A stretch of DNA of 64,000 bases from a phage: the sequence record PZ583742.1. One strand, given 5' to 3'. A program made the position numbers and the translations under genes. Below the pieces are notes generated by a model. It did no database searches, was not told the origin of the DNA, and worked only from the letters and a program-made list of their open reading frames with translations. Shown here in pieces: positions 1,042 to 7,614 of this stretch (position 1 is the stretch's first letter; every line of letters starts with the position of its first letter).

Positions 1042-1083
1042 GATAAAGGGGGCTTTGCCCCCTAATTGGGAGAGGAGAATATT

Positions 1084-1638
1084 ATGAGCTTATATAATGA
1101 CCTTATATCAAATGTAGAATGGTTTGGCGGTAGTGGTCTTGCTACTGAAACTAATACAGTTCTTTATAGAATCCGTGGTGACTTGGGTTATTCCAATGAT
1201 TTCTTAAGAAGAACAACAAGTCGCGGCGATACTACCAAATTGCCTTTTATTTTTGCTTTAGCTGAAGACCTTTCTTTCGCAGATGCCTTGGAAATTATTG
1301 ATGTAAATCTGGGTATTCAACGAGTGGAATTCGGTGGGCTGAGTTATTCCGTGTATGCGTTAAATGACCCAGATGATTATAGGCAACTTATTAATGCGAA
1401 CGATGATGACCATTTGGTGTGTTATTTGATGTTGGAAAATGGTGACCACTTTGGAATGGTTGACCGCCGACCAACTTATACTGATATTAAAAATTATGAT
1501 AAAGATGAGCTTCTTGATTTGGCGGCTGAGTATACATTAGAGAGTCGTAAACGGAAACGGAAGCTTAATCGTTTTATTGCTGAATGTCGTGAATACGCTA
1601 AAGGGGTTCAAAATGCGAACGTTATATCTGCCAAGTAA
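1084..1638 (+). CDS. hypothetical protein
   Basis: ORF with RBS GGAGAGGAG 6 nt before ATG 1084; C-terminal FIAEC motif shared with neighbouring genes. Confidence 0.5.
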   Translation: MSLYNDLISNVEWFGGSGLATETNTVLYRIRGDLGYSNDFLRRTTSRGDTTKLPFIFALAEDLSFADALEIIDVNLGIQRVEFGGLSYSVYALNDPDDYRQLINANDDDHLVCYLMLENGDHFGMVDRRPTYTDIKNYDKDELLDLAAEYTLESRKRKRKLNRFIAECREYAKGVQNANVISAK

Positions 1639-1972
1639 ACCAGAAAAATTTGTATACGCAGACAAGATTGATAAAGACCTTATGCCTGCATTTGCAGGCC
1701 TGGTACTGTGTATCGTTGGAATTATAATGATGGTGGTTTGTGGGGATATGAATATTGTTAGTGTTAACATTGCATGGACACTAACAATTTTATCTCCTTT
1801 TATTACAGTCCTGATTATGCTATTGATAAATGTGTGGCATCAAAATCATAAGAATAAAGGATATCGCGGGCGAGTTAAAAAGTGGGAACAAAAATGTGTT
1901 TCCCTGCAAGAAGAGCACAAAATTAAATGTGCTGAAGAATTTATTAAGGAGGTTCGTAATGGAACGGCCTAG
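1613..1972 (+). CDS. small membrane protein
   Basis: ATG 1613 after AAAGGGG; hydrophobic core LVLCIVGIIMMVV..ILSPFITVLIMLLI; C-terminal EEFIKEV tail. Confidence 0.45.
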   Translation: MRTLYLPSKPEKFVYADKIDKDLMPAFAGLVLCIVGIIMMVVCGDMNIVSVNIAWTLTILSPFITVLIMLLINVWHQNHKNKGYRGRVKKWEQKCVSLQEEHKIKCAEEFIKEVRNGTA

Positions 1973-2312
1973 TCTTGCATCACATGTTTATCAATTGGCT
2001 GAATATGATATTGGTGCCAATTTATTATTAGGGATTGTCACCGCCATGCTTGGTGGTTTGGTTGGTCTGGTAATGACCACGGTTATGGCTGCAATCGAGG
2101 GAGTCATGCCTATTGAGATGGGTTTCTTTATGATAATCGCTCCGGCCGTTGTGTCTTATTTTATCCCGGTTGTGTATGATATCTGTCACACAAATGCCGT
2201 GAATGCTCCCAGCCGTAAGAGATATGCTTTGGCAATGGCTGAGTATAATAAGTTCCTAGACAAAACAAAACGTAATGACCTTGAAACCTTTATTAAGGAA
2301 TGTAAATCATGA
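1959..2312 (+). CDS. small membrane protein
   Basis: ATG 1959 after TAAGGAGG; two hydrophobic segments; C-terminal ETFIKEC tail. Confidence 0.45.
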   Translation: MERPSLASHVYQLAEYDIGANLLLGIVTAMLGGLVGLVMTTVMAAIEGVMPIEMGFFMIIAPAVVSYFIPVVYDICHTNAVNAPSRKRYALAMAEYNKFLDKTKRNDLETFIKECKS

Positions 2313-2599
2313 ATAAAATTGAAATTGCTATCCCCAAGTATTATGATGAGAAATCTGCAGAAAAAGCCATCTATTCTCTTCTAAATAAGACCTCTGAAAT
2401 TGAAAAACACTGTGAAGAAATCGCAGATGAATATGGCATCGAATTCAGCACTGGTGATTACGGCAGCGGCCGTACATATCACCCAGTCGGTTATGAATGT
2501 TCCGAATGGTTCGCTCACCATATTGAAAACAACGGCGGGCAAGTTGAAAACGGCATTGTTACTGTTGGTGCCTGGGTTTCATCTTCTGAGGTGTGCTAA
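2309..2599 (+). CDS. small protein, tandem paralogue family member 1 (C-terminal WVSSSEVC)
   Basis: ORF overlapping upstream stop (ATGA); conserved C-terminal G-W-V-S-S-S-x-C tail. Confidence 0.5.
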   Translation: MNKIEIAIPKYYDEKSAEKAIYSLLNKTSEIEKHCEEIADEYGIEFSTGDYGSGRTYHPVGYECSEWFAHHIENNGGQVENGIVTVGAWVSSSEVC

Positions 2600-2600
2600 T

Positions 2601-2882
2601 ATGATGAATGATTACCGTAAAAATAAAGAACTGGCTAACGCAGTAAATGATATCCATAAAGCTATTCGTCGTGCTGAGGAAATTGCAAACAAATATGAGA
2701 CTCATTTTAATATATACCCTGCTCGCGGTATGGGCGGTGACTATTATTCTCCTGGCGCCCTGAAAGCCGACCTTGCTCATTGGGAAGAACATGGCCATCC
2801 TGAATGGGCTATTGTTAATACTCATGACTATACAACTGACCTGGAAAAAGGCGGTTGGGTGTCCTCCTCTTCTGAATGTTAA
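2601..2882 (+). CDS. small protein, tandem paralogue family member 2 (C-terminal WVSSSSEC)
   Basis: ATG 2601 immediately after stop of previous gene; same C-terminal motif. Confidence 0.5.
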   Translation: MMNDYRKNKELANAVNDIHKAIRRAEEIANKYETHFNIYPARGMGGDYYSPGALKADLAHWEEHGHPEWAIVNTHDYTTDLEKGGWVSSSSEC

Positions 2883-2890
2883 GGAATTAT

Positions 2891-3088
2891 ATGTCTCGTG
2901 AATTAGATTGTGCAATCCGTACTGCCGCAGCAGCTATTGAAAACGTTATCCAGATTTGCAAAGAAGAACGCGAAGAAGCTGATATCTATATCGATGGTGT
3001 TCGTGACCTAGACCGACATATTACGCTTTATAATGGTTGTATTACTATTAGTGGTACCTCTTGGGTGTCCTCCTCTTACGAATGCTAA
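2891..3088 (+). CDS. small protein, tandem paralogue family member 3 (C-terminal WVSSSYEC)
   Basis: ATG 2891 preceded by AAGGAA; same C-terminal motif. Confidence 0.45.
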   Translation: MSRELDCAIRTAAAAIENVIQICKEEREEADIYIDGVRDLDRHITLYNGCITISGTSWVSSSYEC

Positions 3089-3097
3089 GGTTATAAA

Positions 3098-3316
3098 ATG
3101 ACTGCTAAAACTGTTAAAGAAATTGAAAAACAAATCCGTGCACTAATCTGTGAAGGTCTGACTGCGGCGGATGAAACCGGCGAACACTTCCACGCTGGCG
3201 GCGAAGAATATATTCCAGCTTCTAGTCCGGAATATAACGATTATGAATGGGTTCGTGACGAATATTGTATTCCAGAAGGTGAAGGTTTCTGGTTTAACTC
3301 CTCTATGTCTTGCTAA
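3098..3316 (+). CDS. small protein, tandem paralogue family member 4 (C-terminal WFNSSMSC)
   Basis: ORF with AAGG RBS; related C-terminal motif. Confidence 0.45.
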   Translation: MTAKTVKEIEKQIRALICEGLTAADETGEHFHAGGEEYIPASSPEYNDYEWVRDEYCIPEGEGFWFNSSMSC

Positions 3317-3325
3317 GGTGATAAA

Positions 3326-3559
3326 ATGACTACTACTGTTGAACATGGTGAATTAGAAAAAGCTGCCCTTGAACTGGCTGCATTGTATAAGAAAGTAAAA
3401 GATATGGCTAACGCTCAAGATTTCGGTATTGAGCTTGACGAATATGATGGCGAGGTTCGTCTCGAAGACTGGTTGTACAGCTCTTGCTACGGTGAAGACG
3501 CTGGTCGCACCTTTGTTGCTCAACCTGACGGTAAAATCTGGTACCCGAGTAGCTGCTAA
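3326..3559 (+). CDS. small protein, tandem paralogue family member 5 (C-terminal WYPSSC)
   Basis: ORF with AAGG RBS; related C-terminal motif. Confidence 0.45.
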   Translation: MTTTVEHGELEKAALELAALYKKVKDMANAQDFGIELDEYDGEVRLEDWLYSSCYGEDAGRTFVAQPDGKIWYPSSC

Positions 3560-3603
3560 AATTATCACAAGGATGTGATAGGAAAACTTATGTGCAGAAA
3601 TTT

Positions 3604-3662: not shown

Positions 3663-3830
3663 ATGTATAATGTTCTTATTGTTTTTGTCACTCACCCGCA
3701 AGGTGGAGTAAGACAGAATACTTCTCAAGTGGTTCAATTTTCTTCACTAGAGGCCGCCAATCTTGCTGCTTCACGAATTGAAGCGAAAAAATCGGCACTT
3801 GGAAAATATGAAGTAACTCGTCTTTACTAA
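3663..3830 (+). CDS. small hypothetical protein (55 aa)
   Basis: Short ORF flanked by repeated RBS module AATGAGGAAAATATTATG; below ORF-track size cutoff. Confidence 0.3.
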   Translation: MYNVLIVFVTHPQGGVRQNTSQVVQFSSLEAANLAASRIEAKKSALGKYEVTRLY

Positions 3831-3843
3831 TGAGGAAAATATT

Positions 3844-4803
3844 ATGATGTTAGTTATTGGTTCTCGTGCATTACATAACGCTGGTCTGATTGAAAGTCAG
3901 AAAATTGAAAACTCTGATTGGGACTTCATCGCTGACCAGGTCTCATGGAACCACTTTAAAGCACGTATGTTCGGTGCTCATGTTCCTGTGGATAACCCTG
4001 ATGTCCAAGCTTTTAAATGTATGTACAATGGCAAAGAAACCTATTTTGAAGCTTATATTGTCCGTGCCCTGACCAACGTACGAGAAATTACTGGCGAGCT
4101 TCAAGACGAAGATTTCACCTCAAGTTATCGTCTCCTGAAATATGCTGAAAATCATATTAAAAAAGATCGTCTTACAGGTTTTTACTGGGCGACTCCTGAT
4201 ATTTGTCTGGCAATTAAATTGTCTCATCGTTACCTGAAGAACAATCCATTCTTCTTGAAGACCATGAGTCATATTAATTACCTTCGCAATAAGGGTGTTG
4301 TTCTTAATGATGAACTACAAAAAATCATGCTGCAACGTCAGGCAGAAACACTGTCATACAGTCACCCTAAACTAGACGTGGGCAAGAAAACTTTCTTTAA
4401 TGATACAATCTATACCCTTGACCATGACTCCATCCACGAGGCTGTGGCGCTTGCTGATAAGCCTGCATATAAGTTCTATATGAAGGATGATTCAGAAGTC
4501 ATGACCTCGCGTGAAAAATTTGAAGCGCTCCCTGATGTTATTAAACTGGCAGGGGTTTATGAAGAAGCATGTGTGCTCGCTCTGGAGCGTTCGCAGGTTC
4601 CTAATGAGTTCAATATCTCTCCATCTGTGAGCTTCCATATTGCGCTGGAAAAAGTCTGCACCTCCATTACTTCTGGATGGTTCCGTGCCTTCGCATATGA
4701 AAATTACGGCAAAATTATAAGTATGTATAATGCTTTAGGTCATGACGATTATATTAAACGTTTTAAGGCTAACCAACATTTAATTCGTCCTTTCACAAAA
4801 TAA
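3844..4803 (+). CDS. hypothetical protein (319 aa), no T4 counterpart recognised
   Basis: Long ORF with RBS TGAGGAAAA before ATG. Confidence 0.55.
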   Translation: MMLVIGSRALHNAGLIESQKIENSDWDFIADQVSWNHFKARMFGAHVPVDNPDVQAFKCMYNGKETYFEAYIVRALTNVREITGELQDEDFTSSYRLLKYAENHIKKDRLTGFYWATPDICLAIKLSHRYLKNNPFFLKTMSHINYLRNKGVVLNDELQKIMLQRQAETLSYSHPKLDVGKKTFFNDTIYTLDHDSIHEAVALADKPAYKFYMKDDSEVMTSREKFEALPDVIKLAGVYEEACVLALERSQVPNEFNISPSVSFHIALEKVCTSITSGWFRAFAYENYGKIISMYNALGHDDYIKRFKANQHLIRPFTK

Positions 4804-4862: not shown

Positions 4863-5549
4863 ATGAATAGTTCTAAAGTGTTTAATAGCCGAGCTCGTGC
4901 CGTAAGTGGTTTTGCTCACGATGTTCAAAACGATCAAATCAAAAATGAACCGATGTTCTTTAACTGTGATTTGAGTTTTGCTTGGGATAAAGGCGGCCCA
5001 ATCACTCGTAGTTTTATTGCCAATCTTCCGATTGATTGGACTAATGAAAATGTCGTATTCGATTCTCGTGTACATATGTTAATGCCTGGTTGGTATCCTG
5101 CTATCCCTGGGTATCACCATGATGATGTACCGCGCCCGGATATTCCGGTTGGTCAACACTTTATTACTGCAGGGCAACCTGATTATGATAATCCTCGTTA
5201 CCATTCTGAACATATTCTCGGTCTTGTTAACGCTGATGTGTGTCCTACTTATTTTGCAACCGGAACTGCCCAATTTAGTCAGATTCCTGAAGGCGAACTT
5301 ATCTATCGCCAGTGGCATAAAGAAGTTCTGGAAAAAATTGAGTCCAATGAATTAACCAAGTGGGATGCTCCTGACCGCACGTTGCTCCAGTTTGATTGGC
5401 AGACATGGCATACAGGTTCTCGTGCAGTAAGTAACGGTTGGCGCTGGTTTGGTCGTGTGTCTCGTAATACCGACCGTGTTAAAAAGATTACAAATGAAAT
5501 CCGCGTTAATGCTCAAGTATATCTGGAATTCCCTATGGAGGGCTGGTAA
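4863..5549 (+). CDS. hypothetical protein (228 aa)
   Basis: Long ORF with RBS TGAGGAAAA; no recognised motif. Confidence 0.55.
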   Translation: MNSSKVFNSRARAVSGFAHDVQNDQIKNEPMFFNCDLSFAWDKGGPITRSFIANLPIDWTNENVVFDSRVHMLMPGWYPAIPGYHHDDVPRPDIPVGQHFITAGQPDYDNPRYHSEHILGLVNADVCPTYFATGTAQFSQIPEGELIYRQWHKEVLEKIESNELTKWDAPDRTLLQFDWQTWHTGSRAVSNGWRWFGRVSRNTDRVKKITNEIRVNAQVYLEFPMEGW

Positions 5550-6136
5550 TGGCCCTTTATGAACCCGGGTGCATGGGTGTTGATGTAAACTTCATCCGCC
5601 GGGCAGAAAATGCGGGTATAATTGTATCAAGAGACGAATTTATGATTACCAAAAAATATTGGGCGAACCTTGATGATGGTGATGAAGGAATCAAGGTGGA
5701 AAATGTTGATTGGTCGCGATGCAATCGTCATGTGAAAGAGCTTTTAATTAAGGAATATAAAATGGGATACATCATTAATGGGCATCAACCAGAACCACTC
5801 AAAGAACAGACACCCGACCCATTAATTTCTTATAGCAAGAAATATGGATTTCGTACCTGGAGTGATGAATTTGATAAATTAATTTGTTCCAGGTTTTATG
5901 CCTGGGCTGGAATCTTATTTTTACCATTCCTGTGGTTTTTCCTGACAGGTAAAAATGAAGCACCTGTAGCTGTAATGGGCGCGTGCTTTTCTACTGCTCT
6001 TGCTGGACTTATTGCATCATTTTTATGGACTATGGTTATTGAAGTGCCTTTTCGTATTTCTAAAGTTAAAAAGGTGTACGACGATATCACTAAGAAAAAT
6101 ACATTGAACTCTTTTATTGAGGAATGCCGTAAATGA
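5549..6136 (+). CDS. membrane protein
   Basis: ATG overlaps upstream stop (TAATG); C-terminal hydrophobic segments; C-terminal SFIEEC tail. Confidence 0.5.
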   Translation: MALYEPGCMGVDVNFIRRAENAGIIVSRDEFMITKKYWANLDDGDEGIKVENVDWSRCNRHVKELLIKEYKMGYIINGHQPEPLKEQTPDPLISYSKKYGFRTWSDEFDKLICSRFYAWAGILFLPFLWFFLTGKNEAPVAVMGACFSTALAGLIASFLWTMVIEVPFRISKVKKVYDDITKKNTLNSFIEECRK

Positions 6137-6369: not shown

Positions 6370-6820
6370 GAAAAACAAGGTGAAAGAATTATCGGCTGGC
6401 ATTATTTTCATGACTGAAGATAAAGAGTTATTCATGGGTCGTGTGACCGGTTCTCGTAAACCAGGTATGCCAGCACACAAATGGGACATCCCTAAGGGTC
6501 ATGTGGAAGCTGGTGAATCCCCAATTGAAGCGGCTATTCGTGAAACCGAAGAAGAAACTGGGTTTACCCAATACGACCCGGCATTCTTAAAAGACCTCGG
6601 TGAGTTCCGTTATTCAGATAACAAAAACCTTCACCTGTTTTTGTATACGGTTCCTGTCGAGCATGAGCAATTCAGACACAGTAAATGCTCTGCCTATCAT
6701 ACCTTCCCGGATGGCAGTTCGGTCCCAGAGTTTGATGCATTTGCTCTGATTAAACCGAGCCAATGGCAGTACGTGATGGGCAAATCGATGTACAAGGTAA
6801 TGACTCAAATTTTCGGATAA
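6362..6820 (+). CDS. nudE: Nudix hydrolase
   Basis: Nudix box G-x5-E-x7-RETEEETG (GHVEAGESPIEAAIRETEEETG); position immediately upstream of lysozyme gene as in T4. Confidence 0.8.
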   Translation: MSKKNKVKELSAGIIFMTEDKELFMGRVTGSRKPGMPAHKWDIPKGHVEAGESPIEAAIRETEEETGFTQYDPAFLKDLGEFRYSDNKNLHLFLYTVPVEHEQFRHSKCSAYHTFPDGSSVPEFDAFALIKPSQWQYVMGKSMYKVMTQIFG

Positions 6821-6846
6821 TAAATACTCCTATATAAGGGGGTATT

Positions 6847-7341
6847 ATGAATATATTCGAAATGTTACGTATAGATGAAGGTTGTAAGTTGGATTTGTAT
6901 AAAGATACTGAAGGCTATTGGACCATTGGTATCGGGCAACTGATAACTAAGAACCCATCGAAAGATGTTGCTCGCGCCGAGCTCGACAAGCTTATGGGTC
7001 GCGTCTGTAATGGTCGCATAACCCAGCACGAAGCTGAAACATTGTTTAATCGTTCGGTCGAAAAAGCTAAAGCCGGAATCTTGAGGCATCCTGTCTTAAA
7101 ACCTGTTTATGATGTACTGGATGAAGTTCGTCGTTGTGCGCTCATTAATATGGTATTCCAGATGGGTGTTGCCGGGGTAGCTGGTTTTCCTAAGGGTATG
7201 CGACTGCTGAAGGCTAAATCATGGGAAGCTGCTGCTAAGGAACTGGCTGACTCAAGATGGTATAAAGTCCAGACTCCGAATAGGGCAAAACGAGTTATCG
7301 AAACTTTCCGTACTGGAACTTTTGACGCATACAAAAGGTAA
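6847..7341 (+). CDS. e: T4-type lysozyme (endolysin)
   Basis: [51 protein letters not shown] matches T4 lysozyme along its length. Confidence 0.95.
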
Positions 7342-7344
7342 AAT

Positions 7345-7614
7345 ATGAAAACGTATCAAGAATTTTTGGCTGAATCTGTATTAAATGAATCAGATGAAAG
7401 CCGCATGGCATTTTTAGCTAAGAAAGAAGGCTTTGAGTTTACTTCTATTAAAAAAGTTAATGGAACTTCATTTAAAGTTGGTGATTGGACCTTTGGTAAC
7501 AAAGGAAGTGGCCAGTGGCAAATTGTAGATAAATCTGGTAAAGAAGTGGATTATTTGTTTAATCAGAAATTGGGTGATATCGCTAAACTTATGGGTCAAT
7601 ACTCTAAGAAATGA
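7345..7614 (+). CDS. internal protein (IP) with capsid-targeting sequence
   Basis: N-terminus MKTYQEFLAE matches T4 internal-protein capsid-targeting sequence with L-x-E protease site; sits between e and denV where T4 has ipIII/ipII. Confidence 0.65.
   Translation: MKTYQEFLAESVLNESDESRMAFLAKKEGFEFTSIKKVNGTSFKVGDWTFGNKGSGQWQIVDKSGKEVDYLFNQKLGDIAKLMGQYSKK

Follow-up and report, generated by a model that had tools for sequence, protein, structure and literature searches.

Why do five consecutive small genes of a phage all end in nearly the same few residues, and what might such a shared ending serve? The question is raised by an array of five genes, here called p1 to p5 (Table 1), in a stretch of 64,000 nucleotides (nt) of the phage sequence record PZ583742.1, the whole of which is referred to below as the window. 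We found that the five genes are ancient paralogues belonging to a family of small acidic proteins (65-100 amino acids, aa) that is widespread among phages, and that their tail, a Trp followed at a constant distance by a Ser pair and closed by a Cys, is conserved at the protein level. Together with a downstream gene for a polymerase beta (Pol-beta)-type nucleotidyltransferase (NTase), hereafter the enzyme, these small tail proteins very probably make up a conserved two-family module. The tail may well be the element by which the small proteins meet the enzyme.

Five old paralogues with one tail

In the preliminary description, the locus was presented as five consecutive genes of 65-96 aa that nearly abut and share a C-terminal tail, and the open reading frames (ORFs) confirm this, all on the same strand and with gaps of 1, 8, 9 and 9 nt between each stop codon and the next start from p1 to p5. 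All five proteins are acidic (isoelectric point, pI, 4.3-5.6). Of the 1074 ORFs counted from stop to stop across the six frames of the window (minimum 30 aa), they alone end in the tail, and a hidden Markov model (HMM) search detected no further family member there. Four of the proteins (p1, p2, p4 and p5) match the C-terminal part of the PHROG 899 profile (positions ~133-221 of 221). When profiles were compared with one another, the p3 and p5 subfamilies joined the others by similarity in the N-terminal helix and body as well as in the tail: the p3 subfamily aligned with the p2-like profile over the N-terminal helix (hhalign probability 90%, E 1.5e-6), and the p5 subfamily aligned with it at a probability of 88%. 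The shared profile and these alignments bear out the earlier proposal that the genes are true paralogues.

The family extends well beyond this phage. Homologues of p2, which has the YGMGG-x-Y-x-P loop characteristic of the family at large, were found by tblastn in 285 phage records, and a profile search of 1.84 billion representative proteins returned 52 matches, approximately 45 of which are proteins of 70-120 aa with the same architecture and tail. The consensus order in the wider family is a helix, A-E-x-I-A-D-x-x-G-x-x-F, Y-G-x-G-x-T-Y-x-P, and then G-x-W-x-S-S-S-x-x-C. An AlphaFold2 model of p1 (predicted local distance difference test, pLDDT, 91.8) places a helix of ~29 residues (14-42) with a small beta-sheet and buries W89 in the last strand; the tail forms a short turn, modelled with lower confidence. 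The last six residues of the model have a pLDDT of 78, compared with more than 90 in the body, which would fit an exposed end. This predicted fold had no counterpart among solved structures, and Pfam, NCBIfam, PADLOC and PDB sequence searches with the small proteins were all empty. Family members of phage phiR1-RT have been expressed singly in Escherichia coli, where g126, g127 and g128 were non-toxic (relative colony-forming units of 0.94, 0.69 and 1.08; PMC6893735 supplement), which argues against family members as stand-alone growth inhibitors. That screen covered g126-g128, with the enzyme outside it, and the toxic proteins from that part of the phiR1-RT genome were Gp136 and Gp137, both predicted membrane proteins (PMC6893735).

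No other part of the small proteins is as well conserved as the tail. Across 106 non-redundant members its consensus is G-x-W-[VYFI]-[SPA]-S-S-x0-3-C, in which the Trp is invariant, the two Ser residues are present in 100% and 95% of members, respectively, and 96% of the proteins terminate exactly in Cys. The spacing from Trp to the Ser pair is constant, and that from the Ser pair to Cys varies from 0 to 3 residues. The motif occurs twice in p5, the additional copy (DWLYSSC) lying internally at residues 48-54; W49, S52, C54, W72, S75 and C77 are invariant in the p5 subfamily alignment, and both the internal D-W-L-x-S-S-C-Y-G-E and the terminal W-x-x-S-S-C are invariant in nine distant orthologues. 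Some distant relatives end in ...W-E-x-S-G-G-C-E-W...Y-G-W-N-[IV] instead.

Because the genes are so tightly packed, and because the Shine-Dalgarno sequence of each next gene begins at the stop after the Cys codon (TG[CT]-TAA-GG), the tail could in principle be imposed at the nucleotide level by an overlapping ribosome-binding site or start signal, which had been named beforehand as the finding that would undo the protein-level interpretation. Codon usage and junction anatomy refute this explanation, to which we assign practically no probability. The Shine-Dalgarno sequence, TAA-GG(A/T), comprises the stop codon itself and the bases just 3' of it, whereas the codons for Trp and the Ser pair lie 6-24 nt 5' of the stop, outside any Shine-Dalgarno sequence, and p5 retains the tail though no coupled gene follows it. 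The tail Ser residues are encoded from both codon boxes (TCN 249, AGY 72), the Cys by TGC as well as TGT, all three stop codons occur among members, and the tail persists in distant phages that have other gene junctions. Conservation therefore acts on the protein, and the claim of a conserved Cys-containing C-terminal tail was borne out in many phage lineages.

The proposal that the family is rapidly diversifying, in contrast, did not hold. The ratio of nonsynonymous to synonymous substitution rates (dN/dS; Nei-Gojobori method, against 10 close relatives) was 0.135 for p1, 0.19 for p2, 0.075 for p3, 0.27 for p4 and 0.08 for p5, a range of 0.08-0.27 that lies near the values of 0.03-0.13 in neighbouring genes (enzyme gene 0.07, lysozyme 0.09, nudE 0.03). 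Orthologues of individual paralogues are present in Moonvirus (three copies), Mosigvirus (three), Kanagawavirus (five), a Klebsiella T4-like phage (five) and Tegunavirus (four), with p3 orthologues in five other genera. Since orthologues of every paralogue can be recognised in other T4-like genera, the divergence among them is old; each copy is under purifying selection, and all copies of these old duplications have been maintained.

Linkage to a nucleotidyltransferase gene

The enzyme combines two Pfam domains, DUF7277 at residues 2-101 (247.7 bits) and DUF7275 at residues 120-305 (90.5 bits; cut-off 27 for each), both of which match in 24 of 24 aligned homologues with identities of 43-72%, and it belongs to PHROG 2141. 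It has the bilobed Pol-beta NTase fold resembling the solved MenT structures, with MenT1, MenT3 and MenT4 as its best structural matches, and its catalytic motif G-S...D-x-D...E is intact. G6, S7, D25 and D27 are invariant in the 24 homologues and in nine distant ones, including those of Gram-positive phages, and E69 is invariant in long-form enzymes. Invariant positions of the C-domain comprise K125, H128, R129, K139, H174, D193-H194-D195, H198 and the stretch K-V-C-T-S-I-T-S-G-W-F-R. None of the 24 members matched DUF1814 (PF08843) at E values up to 10, and no PADLOC match was obtained for the enzyme. Identification as RlaP was likewise rejected, with a PF10127 match in 0 of 24 members at E values up to 10.

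Genes for the enzyme were found in at least 732 phage records and ~2,000 metagenomic protein clusters, and their carriers include therapeutic-type T4-like, Phapecoctavirus, Acinetobacter, Aeromonas and Pseudomonas phages. In bacteria the enzyme is nearly absent: 185,579 species genomes yielded five loci, all on phage-like contigs of metagenome-assembled genomes (MAGs), each again with tail-bearing ORFs beside the enzyme. Some copies have neighbours related to RNA, namely tRNA-Arg and tRNA-Met after the enzyme in Thanatos-1, a tRNA cluster after it in Gordonia phage ClubL, and an RNA ligase near it in SE_PL, Annadreamy and an Aeromonas-like contig; these tRNA and RNA-repair neighbours are a weak hint that RNA is possibly a substrate.

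Conserved adjacency of the two families was seen from both directions. Starting from the small family, all 36 loci with enough downstream DNA had an enzyme homologue on the same strand, ~50-1300 nt downstream, in a set that includes contigs of 355-371 kb, Ralstonia phage RSP15 and contigs of 117-185 kb. In the reverse test, 19 of the 24 loci found through the enzyme had 1-6 small tail-bearing ORFs adjacent to it, among them marine and other metagenome contigs, Pseudomonas and Stenotrophomonas phages, Menderavirus, a 349-kb jumbo phage and the five MAG-binned contigs; the five negative loci were a contig with just 1.5 kb upstream, three short-form enzymes and Bacillus phage G. The number of tail-bearing copies beside the enzyme varies, with 4-5 in Pseudomonas Otagovirus, 3-4 in Pseudomonas phage SYP, three in Phapecoctavirus, 2-3 in Stenotrophomonas phage BUCT608, two in a Variovorax phage, and one each in jumbo phage SE_PL, Shewanella phage Thanatos-1 and Acinetobacter phage ZZ1 (there without the Cys). 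The small genes of BUCT608 (locus L054, 4001-5960) lie 3' of the enzyme, the sole inversion of order observed, and adjacency thus outlives a change of gene order.

This association is specific in two further respects. Across the window and 45 related loci, the strict tail occurred in 164 of 9,978 ORFs, and 153 of these 164 lie on the same strand as an enzyme gene and at most 3.5 kb upstream of it; just 3 of the other 11 are unrelated. All-against-all clustering of 22 diverse loci left only two families in common, the enzyme (22/22) and the small family (at least 20/22). The complete T4 genome holds neither of them. T4 (L068) does have nrdC.11, annotated as a nucleotidyltransferase (6436-7446), without a match to the enzyme HMM.

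Short-form enzymes are 250-266 aa long. Those standing without partners (L056, L057 and L061) lack N-domain residues ~40-115 and have Ile in place of C272 within K-V-C-T-S-I-T-S-G-W, while C272 is kept in all partner-associated enzymes of this small sample. As far as nine sequences can suggest, the N-domain insert and C272 may mark the part of the enzyme that meets the partners.

Possible roles of the tail

We consider it an even call that the tail is the common element engaging the enzyme, whether as an acceptor or as a docking site in a physical interaction. Within the small proteins, conservation is highest in the tail, which is also their sole universal element, and the enzyme beside them is single and highly conserved; this is why the tail suggests itself as a shared handle through which every paralogue would engage the one enzyme; high conservation of the enzyme is what would be expected if it recognised a conserved substrate element. 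In the fold predicted for the small proteins, a long N-terminal helix would pack on a small beta-sheet, the Trp would anchor the last beta-strand, and Ser-Ser(-Ser) with the terminal Cys would protrude as a flexible end. That end could offer a hydroxyl or a thiol to which the enzyme transfers a nucleotide, or it could be a peptide docking in the active-site cleft, and the diverged bodies could then give each paralogue a separate downstream target or role. Nucleoside monophosphates (NMPs) are transferred to hydroxyls by enzymes of the Pol-beta NTase fold, the acceptor being an antibiotic for ANT and Lnu and a protein side chain for MntA, GlnD and GlnE. Ser-Ser(-Ser) is a plausible acceptor because Pol-beta NTases transfer NMP to hydroxyl groups, with docking or regulation as the alternative; in MenT these are the hydroxyls of RNA 3' ends (PMC10435456). 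The preliminary description had taken the tail for a possible recognition or modification signal, a proposal that is strengthened by the conserved adjacency to the NTase gene, while engagement of the enzyme itself is a step that we infer.

A narrower and more speculative version, which we hold possible though rather doubtful, is a phage protein-tagging system in which a MenT-like enzyme would covalently nucleotidylylate, or otherwise charge, the exposed Ser-Ser(-Ser)/Cys tail of small effectors. The tail would in that case be a portable acceptor tag, and one enzyme might, in the course of infection, switch on, or pass a nucleotide through, up to six paralogues with different targets.

Several observations weigh against the tail as a handle for this enzyme, or against a tight module. 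The internal W-x-S-S-C kept in the p5 subfamily implies that the motif need not stand at the extreme C-terminus, and a few members lack the terminal Cys, such as that of ZZ1 (EWSASSENS) and a marine one (EWTSSSQN). No partner could be detected within 4 kb of the short-form enzymes (Streptomyces, Gordonia, Vibrio RYC) or of the long one of Bacillus phage G, and since such partner-less homologues exist, the enzyme must have a function independent of partners. The array of the window does not directly adjoin the enzyme gene, the two being set apart by a hairpin and by a 55-aa ORF whose presence varies. Many of the sampled loci also share descent, so that independent observations of the linkage are fewer than the raw counts.

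Two other explanations compete with engagement through the tail. The locus could be a toxin-antitoxin system like MenAT, in which the enzyme would modify tRNA 3' ends and the small proteins would be inhibitors or timers blocking it through their long helix, with a secondary or different role for the tail. Toxins of the MenT type, MenT1, MenT3 and MenT4 among them, attach nucleotides to the 3' ends of tRNAs, and MenT1, encoded immediately after its antitoxin, is blocked by the helical MenA1, a protein of 68 aa encoded upstream of it that binds via a long central helix (PMC10435456). The small proteins are likewise encoded upstream of their enzyme and begin with the predicted ~29-residue helix, MenT proteins are the top structural matches of the enzyme, and the enzyme is frequently close to tRNA or RNA-repair genes. 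An inhibitor role, however, leaves unexplained why 3-6 old, individually conserved paralogues are kept per genome; the invariant part of the small proteins is the tail and not the helix; sequence searches revealed no resemblance to DUF1814 or any known antitoxin; and enzyme homologues occur without a partner. We therefore regard a MenAT-like system as unlikely. We judge it similarly unlikely that each protein acts on a host target alone, for example as an acidic decoy or in anti-defence, with the enzyme as a merely syntenic, co-regulated accessory and the tail binding a common host factor or metal, or stabilising the fold. The proteins are indeed small and acidic, their genes lie in a variable part of the early region, flanked by homologues of e.3 and e.2, that accumulates accessory genes, both families are dispensable since T4 is without them, and the Trp buried in the last strand of the model would make the motif partly structural. 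Plain synteny in a variable region would nevertheless be expected to decay, whereas this adjacency holds across phage families that have no other neighbourhood gene in common and persists through an inversion of order, and T4 has lost both families jointly.

Chemistry of the kind known from ribosomally synthesized and post-translationally modified peptides (RiPPs) is a highly improbable further explanation. Here the C-terminal S-x-x-C would be converted to a thioether or AviCys-like ring, the enzyme first activating the Ser by phosphorylation or nucleotidylation, after which the Ser would become dehydroalanine and the Cys would add to it. The S-x-x-C ends of epidermin-type peptides resemble the commonest tail type, in which a Ser stands exactly three residues before the C-terminal Cys (77 of 102 anchored tails), and the enzyme could in principle activate a hydroxyl. 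The distance from Ser to Cys varies from 0 to 3 residues, however, with S-S-C in the p5 type; a dehydratase, a cyclase or a flavin (HFCD) decarboxylase is not conserved nearby, given that the 22 diverse loci share only the NTase and the small family; and the small proteins are confidently predicted folded domains rather than leader-core peptides.

Among known systems, the closest kind is an NTase paired with a small partner protein, as in MenAT, MNT-HEPN and GlnD-PII. In the type VII toxin-antitoxin system MntA-HepT and in GlnD-PII, Pol-beta-fold enzymes modify a small protein encoded nearby at a side-chain hydroxyl, and GlnB and GlnK, as several paralogous substrates of the one enzyme GlnD, would parallel the array described here. 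The acceptors in those two systems are internal Tyr residues, whereas the candidate acceptor here is the C-terminal Ser/Cys tail, and family searches detected no homology to MNT, HEPN, GlnD or PII. The arrangement is like MenAT1 in that the enzyme is encoded immediately after at least one small protein starting with a long helix (PMC10435456). It differs from MenT/AbiEii in that the phage enzyme is not a member of DUF1814 by sequence and the module is restricted to phages; from MenAT in having 1-6 paralogous partners instead of one; and from MenA1, which has no such tail, in that the partners are helix-plus-sheet proteins with the W-x-S-S-S-x-x-C ending. RlaP (PF10127) is an RNA-ligase-associated phage Pol-beta NTase (PMC7824862), and the enzyme resembles it as a phage Pol-beta NTase frequently found near RNA-repair genes, differing in that it forms a separate family. 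New relative to such pairs are thus the phage restriction, the multiple paralogous partners, the fold of the partners and the C-terminal Ser/Cys tail.

By HMM score, the proteins in the window are clear members of PHROG 899 and PHROG 4882 (small proteins) and of DUF7277, DUF7275 and PHROG 2141 (enzyme), catalogue families of unknown function whose names and descriptions mention neither the tail motif nor the linkage. The module, the tail and the linkage were not described in the literature searched under the DUF names and for C-terminal Cys in T4-like phages, phage MenT/AbiEii-like NTases and protein AMPylation. To our knowledge, the MenT-type fold has so far been known only from bacterial tRNA-targeting toxins, and no post-translational tagging system of this type has been described for phages. 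If the tail were an acceptor or docking site, the module would be a new and easily testable post-translational or regulatory system of phages built on this fold. A more conservative use is available for annotation: a small ORF ending in W-x-S-S-S-x-x-C beside a DUF7277/DUF7275 gene annotates hundreds of "hypothetical" genes as one module.

Genomic setting of the module

The closest DNA relatives of the region are T4-like coliphages of the genera Gaprivervirus and Dhakavirus (TH44, VR26, VR7 and JS98; 82-94% identity). In the annotated VR7 genome, the five tail genes, all listed as hypothetical, lie between the e.3 and e.2 homologues, 5' of nudE and lysozyme e. Coordinates of the module and its neighbours are given in Table 1.

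Table 1. Positions of the five tail genes, the enzyme gene and surrounding features in the window
Feature	Position	Strand	Description	C-terminal tail	Family match
p1	2309-2599	+	96 aa, pI 4.6	GAWVSSSEVC	PHROG 899, E 7.6e-22
p2	2601-2882	+	93 aa, start ATG 2601	GGWVSSSSEC	PHROG 899, E 8.9e-20
p3	2891-3088	+	65 aa (shortest member), start ATG 2891	TSWVSSSYEC	PHROG 4882, E 1.6e-36
p4	3098-3316	+	72 aa	GFWFNSSMSC	PHROG 899, E 7.4e-10
p5	3326-3559	+	77 aa	KIWYPSSC (short tail)	PHROG 899, E 4.6e-9
Hairpin	3563-3580		Perfect 7-bp stem, TATCACA-AGGA-TGTGATA; 4 nt past p5 stop; T-run absent		
55-aa ORF	3663-3830		Between array and enzyme gene		PHROG 20278
Enzyme gene (partner gene)	3844-4803	+	319 aa, Pol-beta-type nucleotidyltransferase; 285 nt 3' of array		PHROG 2141
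228-aa gene	4863-5549		3' of enzyme gene		PHROG 1843; no Pfam match
e.2/e.3/e.4-like paralogue	1066-1638		Flanks module		
e.2/e.3/e.4-like paralogue	1577-1972		Flanks module		
e.2/e.3/e.4-like paralogue	1830-2312		Flanks module		
e.2/e.3/e.4-like paralogue	5549-6136		Flanks module; e.2-like		PHROG 2203 ("membrane protein")

The hairpin past p5 may determine how strongly the array is expressed relative to the enzyme gene; in phage Merlin, a terminator is annotated at the equivalent site after its array. Only 4 of 10 close relatives gave an alignment covering 80% or more of the 55-aa ORF, and in these it is near-identical (synonymous divergence, dS, 0.025), and this patchy presence together with the near-identity where it can be aligned suggests a recent insertion. 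The 228-aa gene was considered as a third core component and rejected: it follows the enzyme only in T4-like enterobacterial phages, two Tegunavirus loci excepted, and it is missing from the distant loci (L030-L039 and the diverse clustered set), which places it outside the core module.

The e.2/e.3/e.4-like paralogues that flank the module have a C-terminal motif of their own, [ST]-F-I-x-E-C-[KR], seen as ETFIKECKS, NSFIEECRK, NRFIAECRE... and EEFIKEVRN. The PHROGs to which this set belongs (2330, 2203 and 2604) match one another, and on contig L048 four similar ORFs stand in tandem 5' of the enzyme gene.

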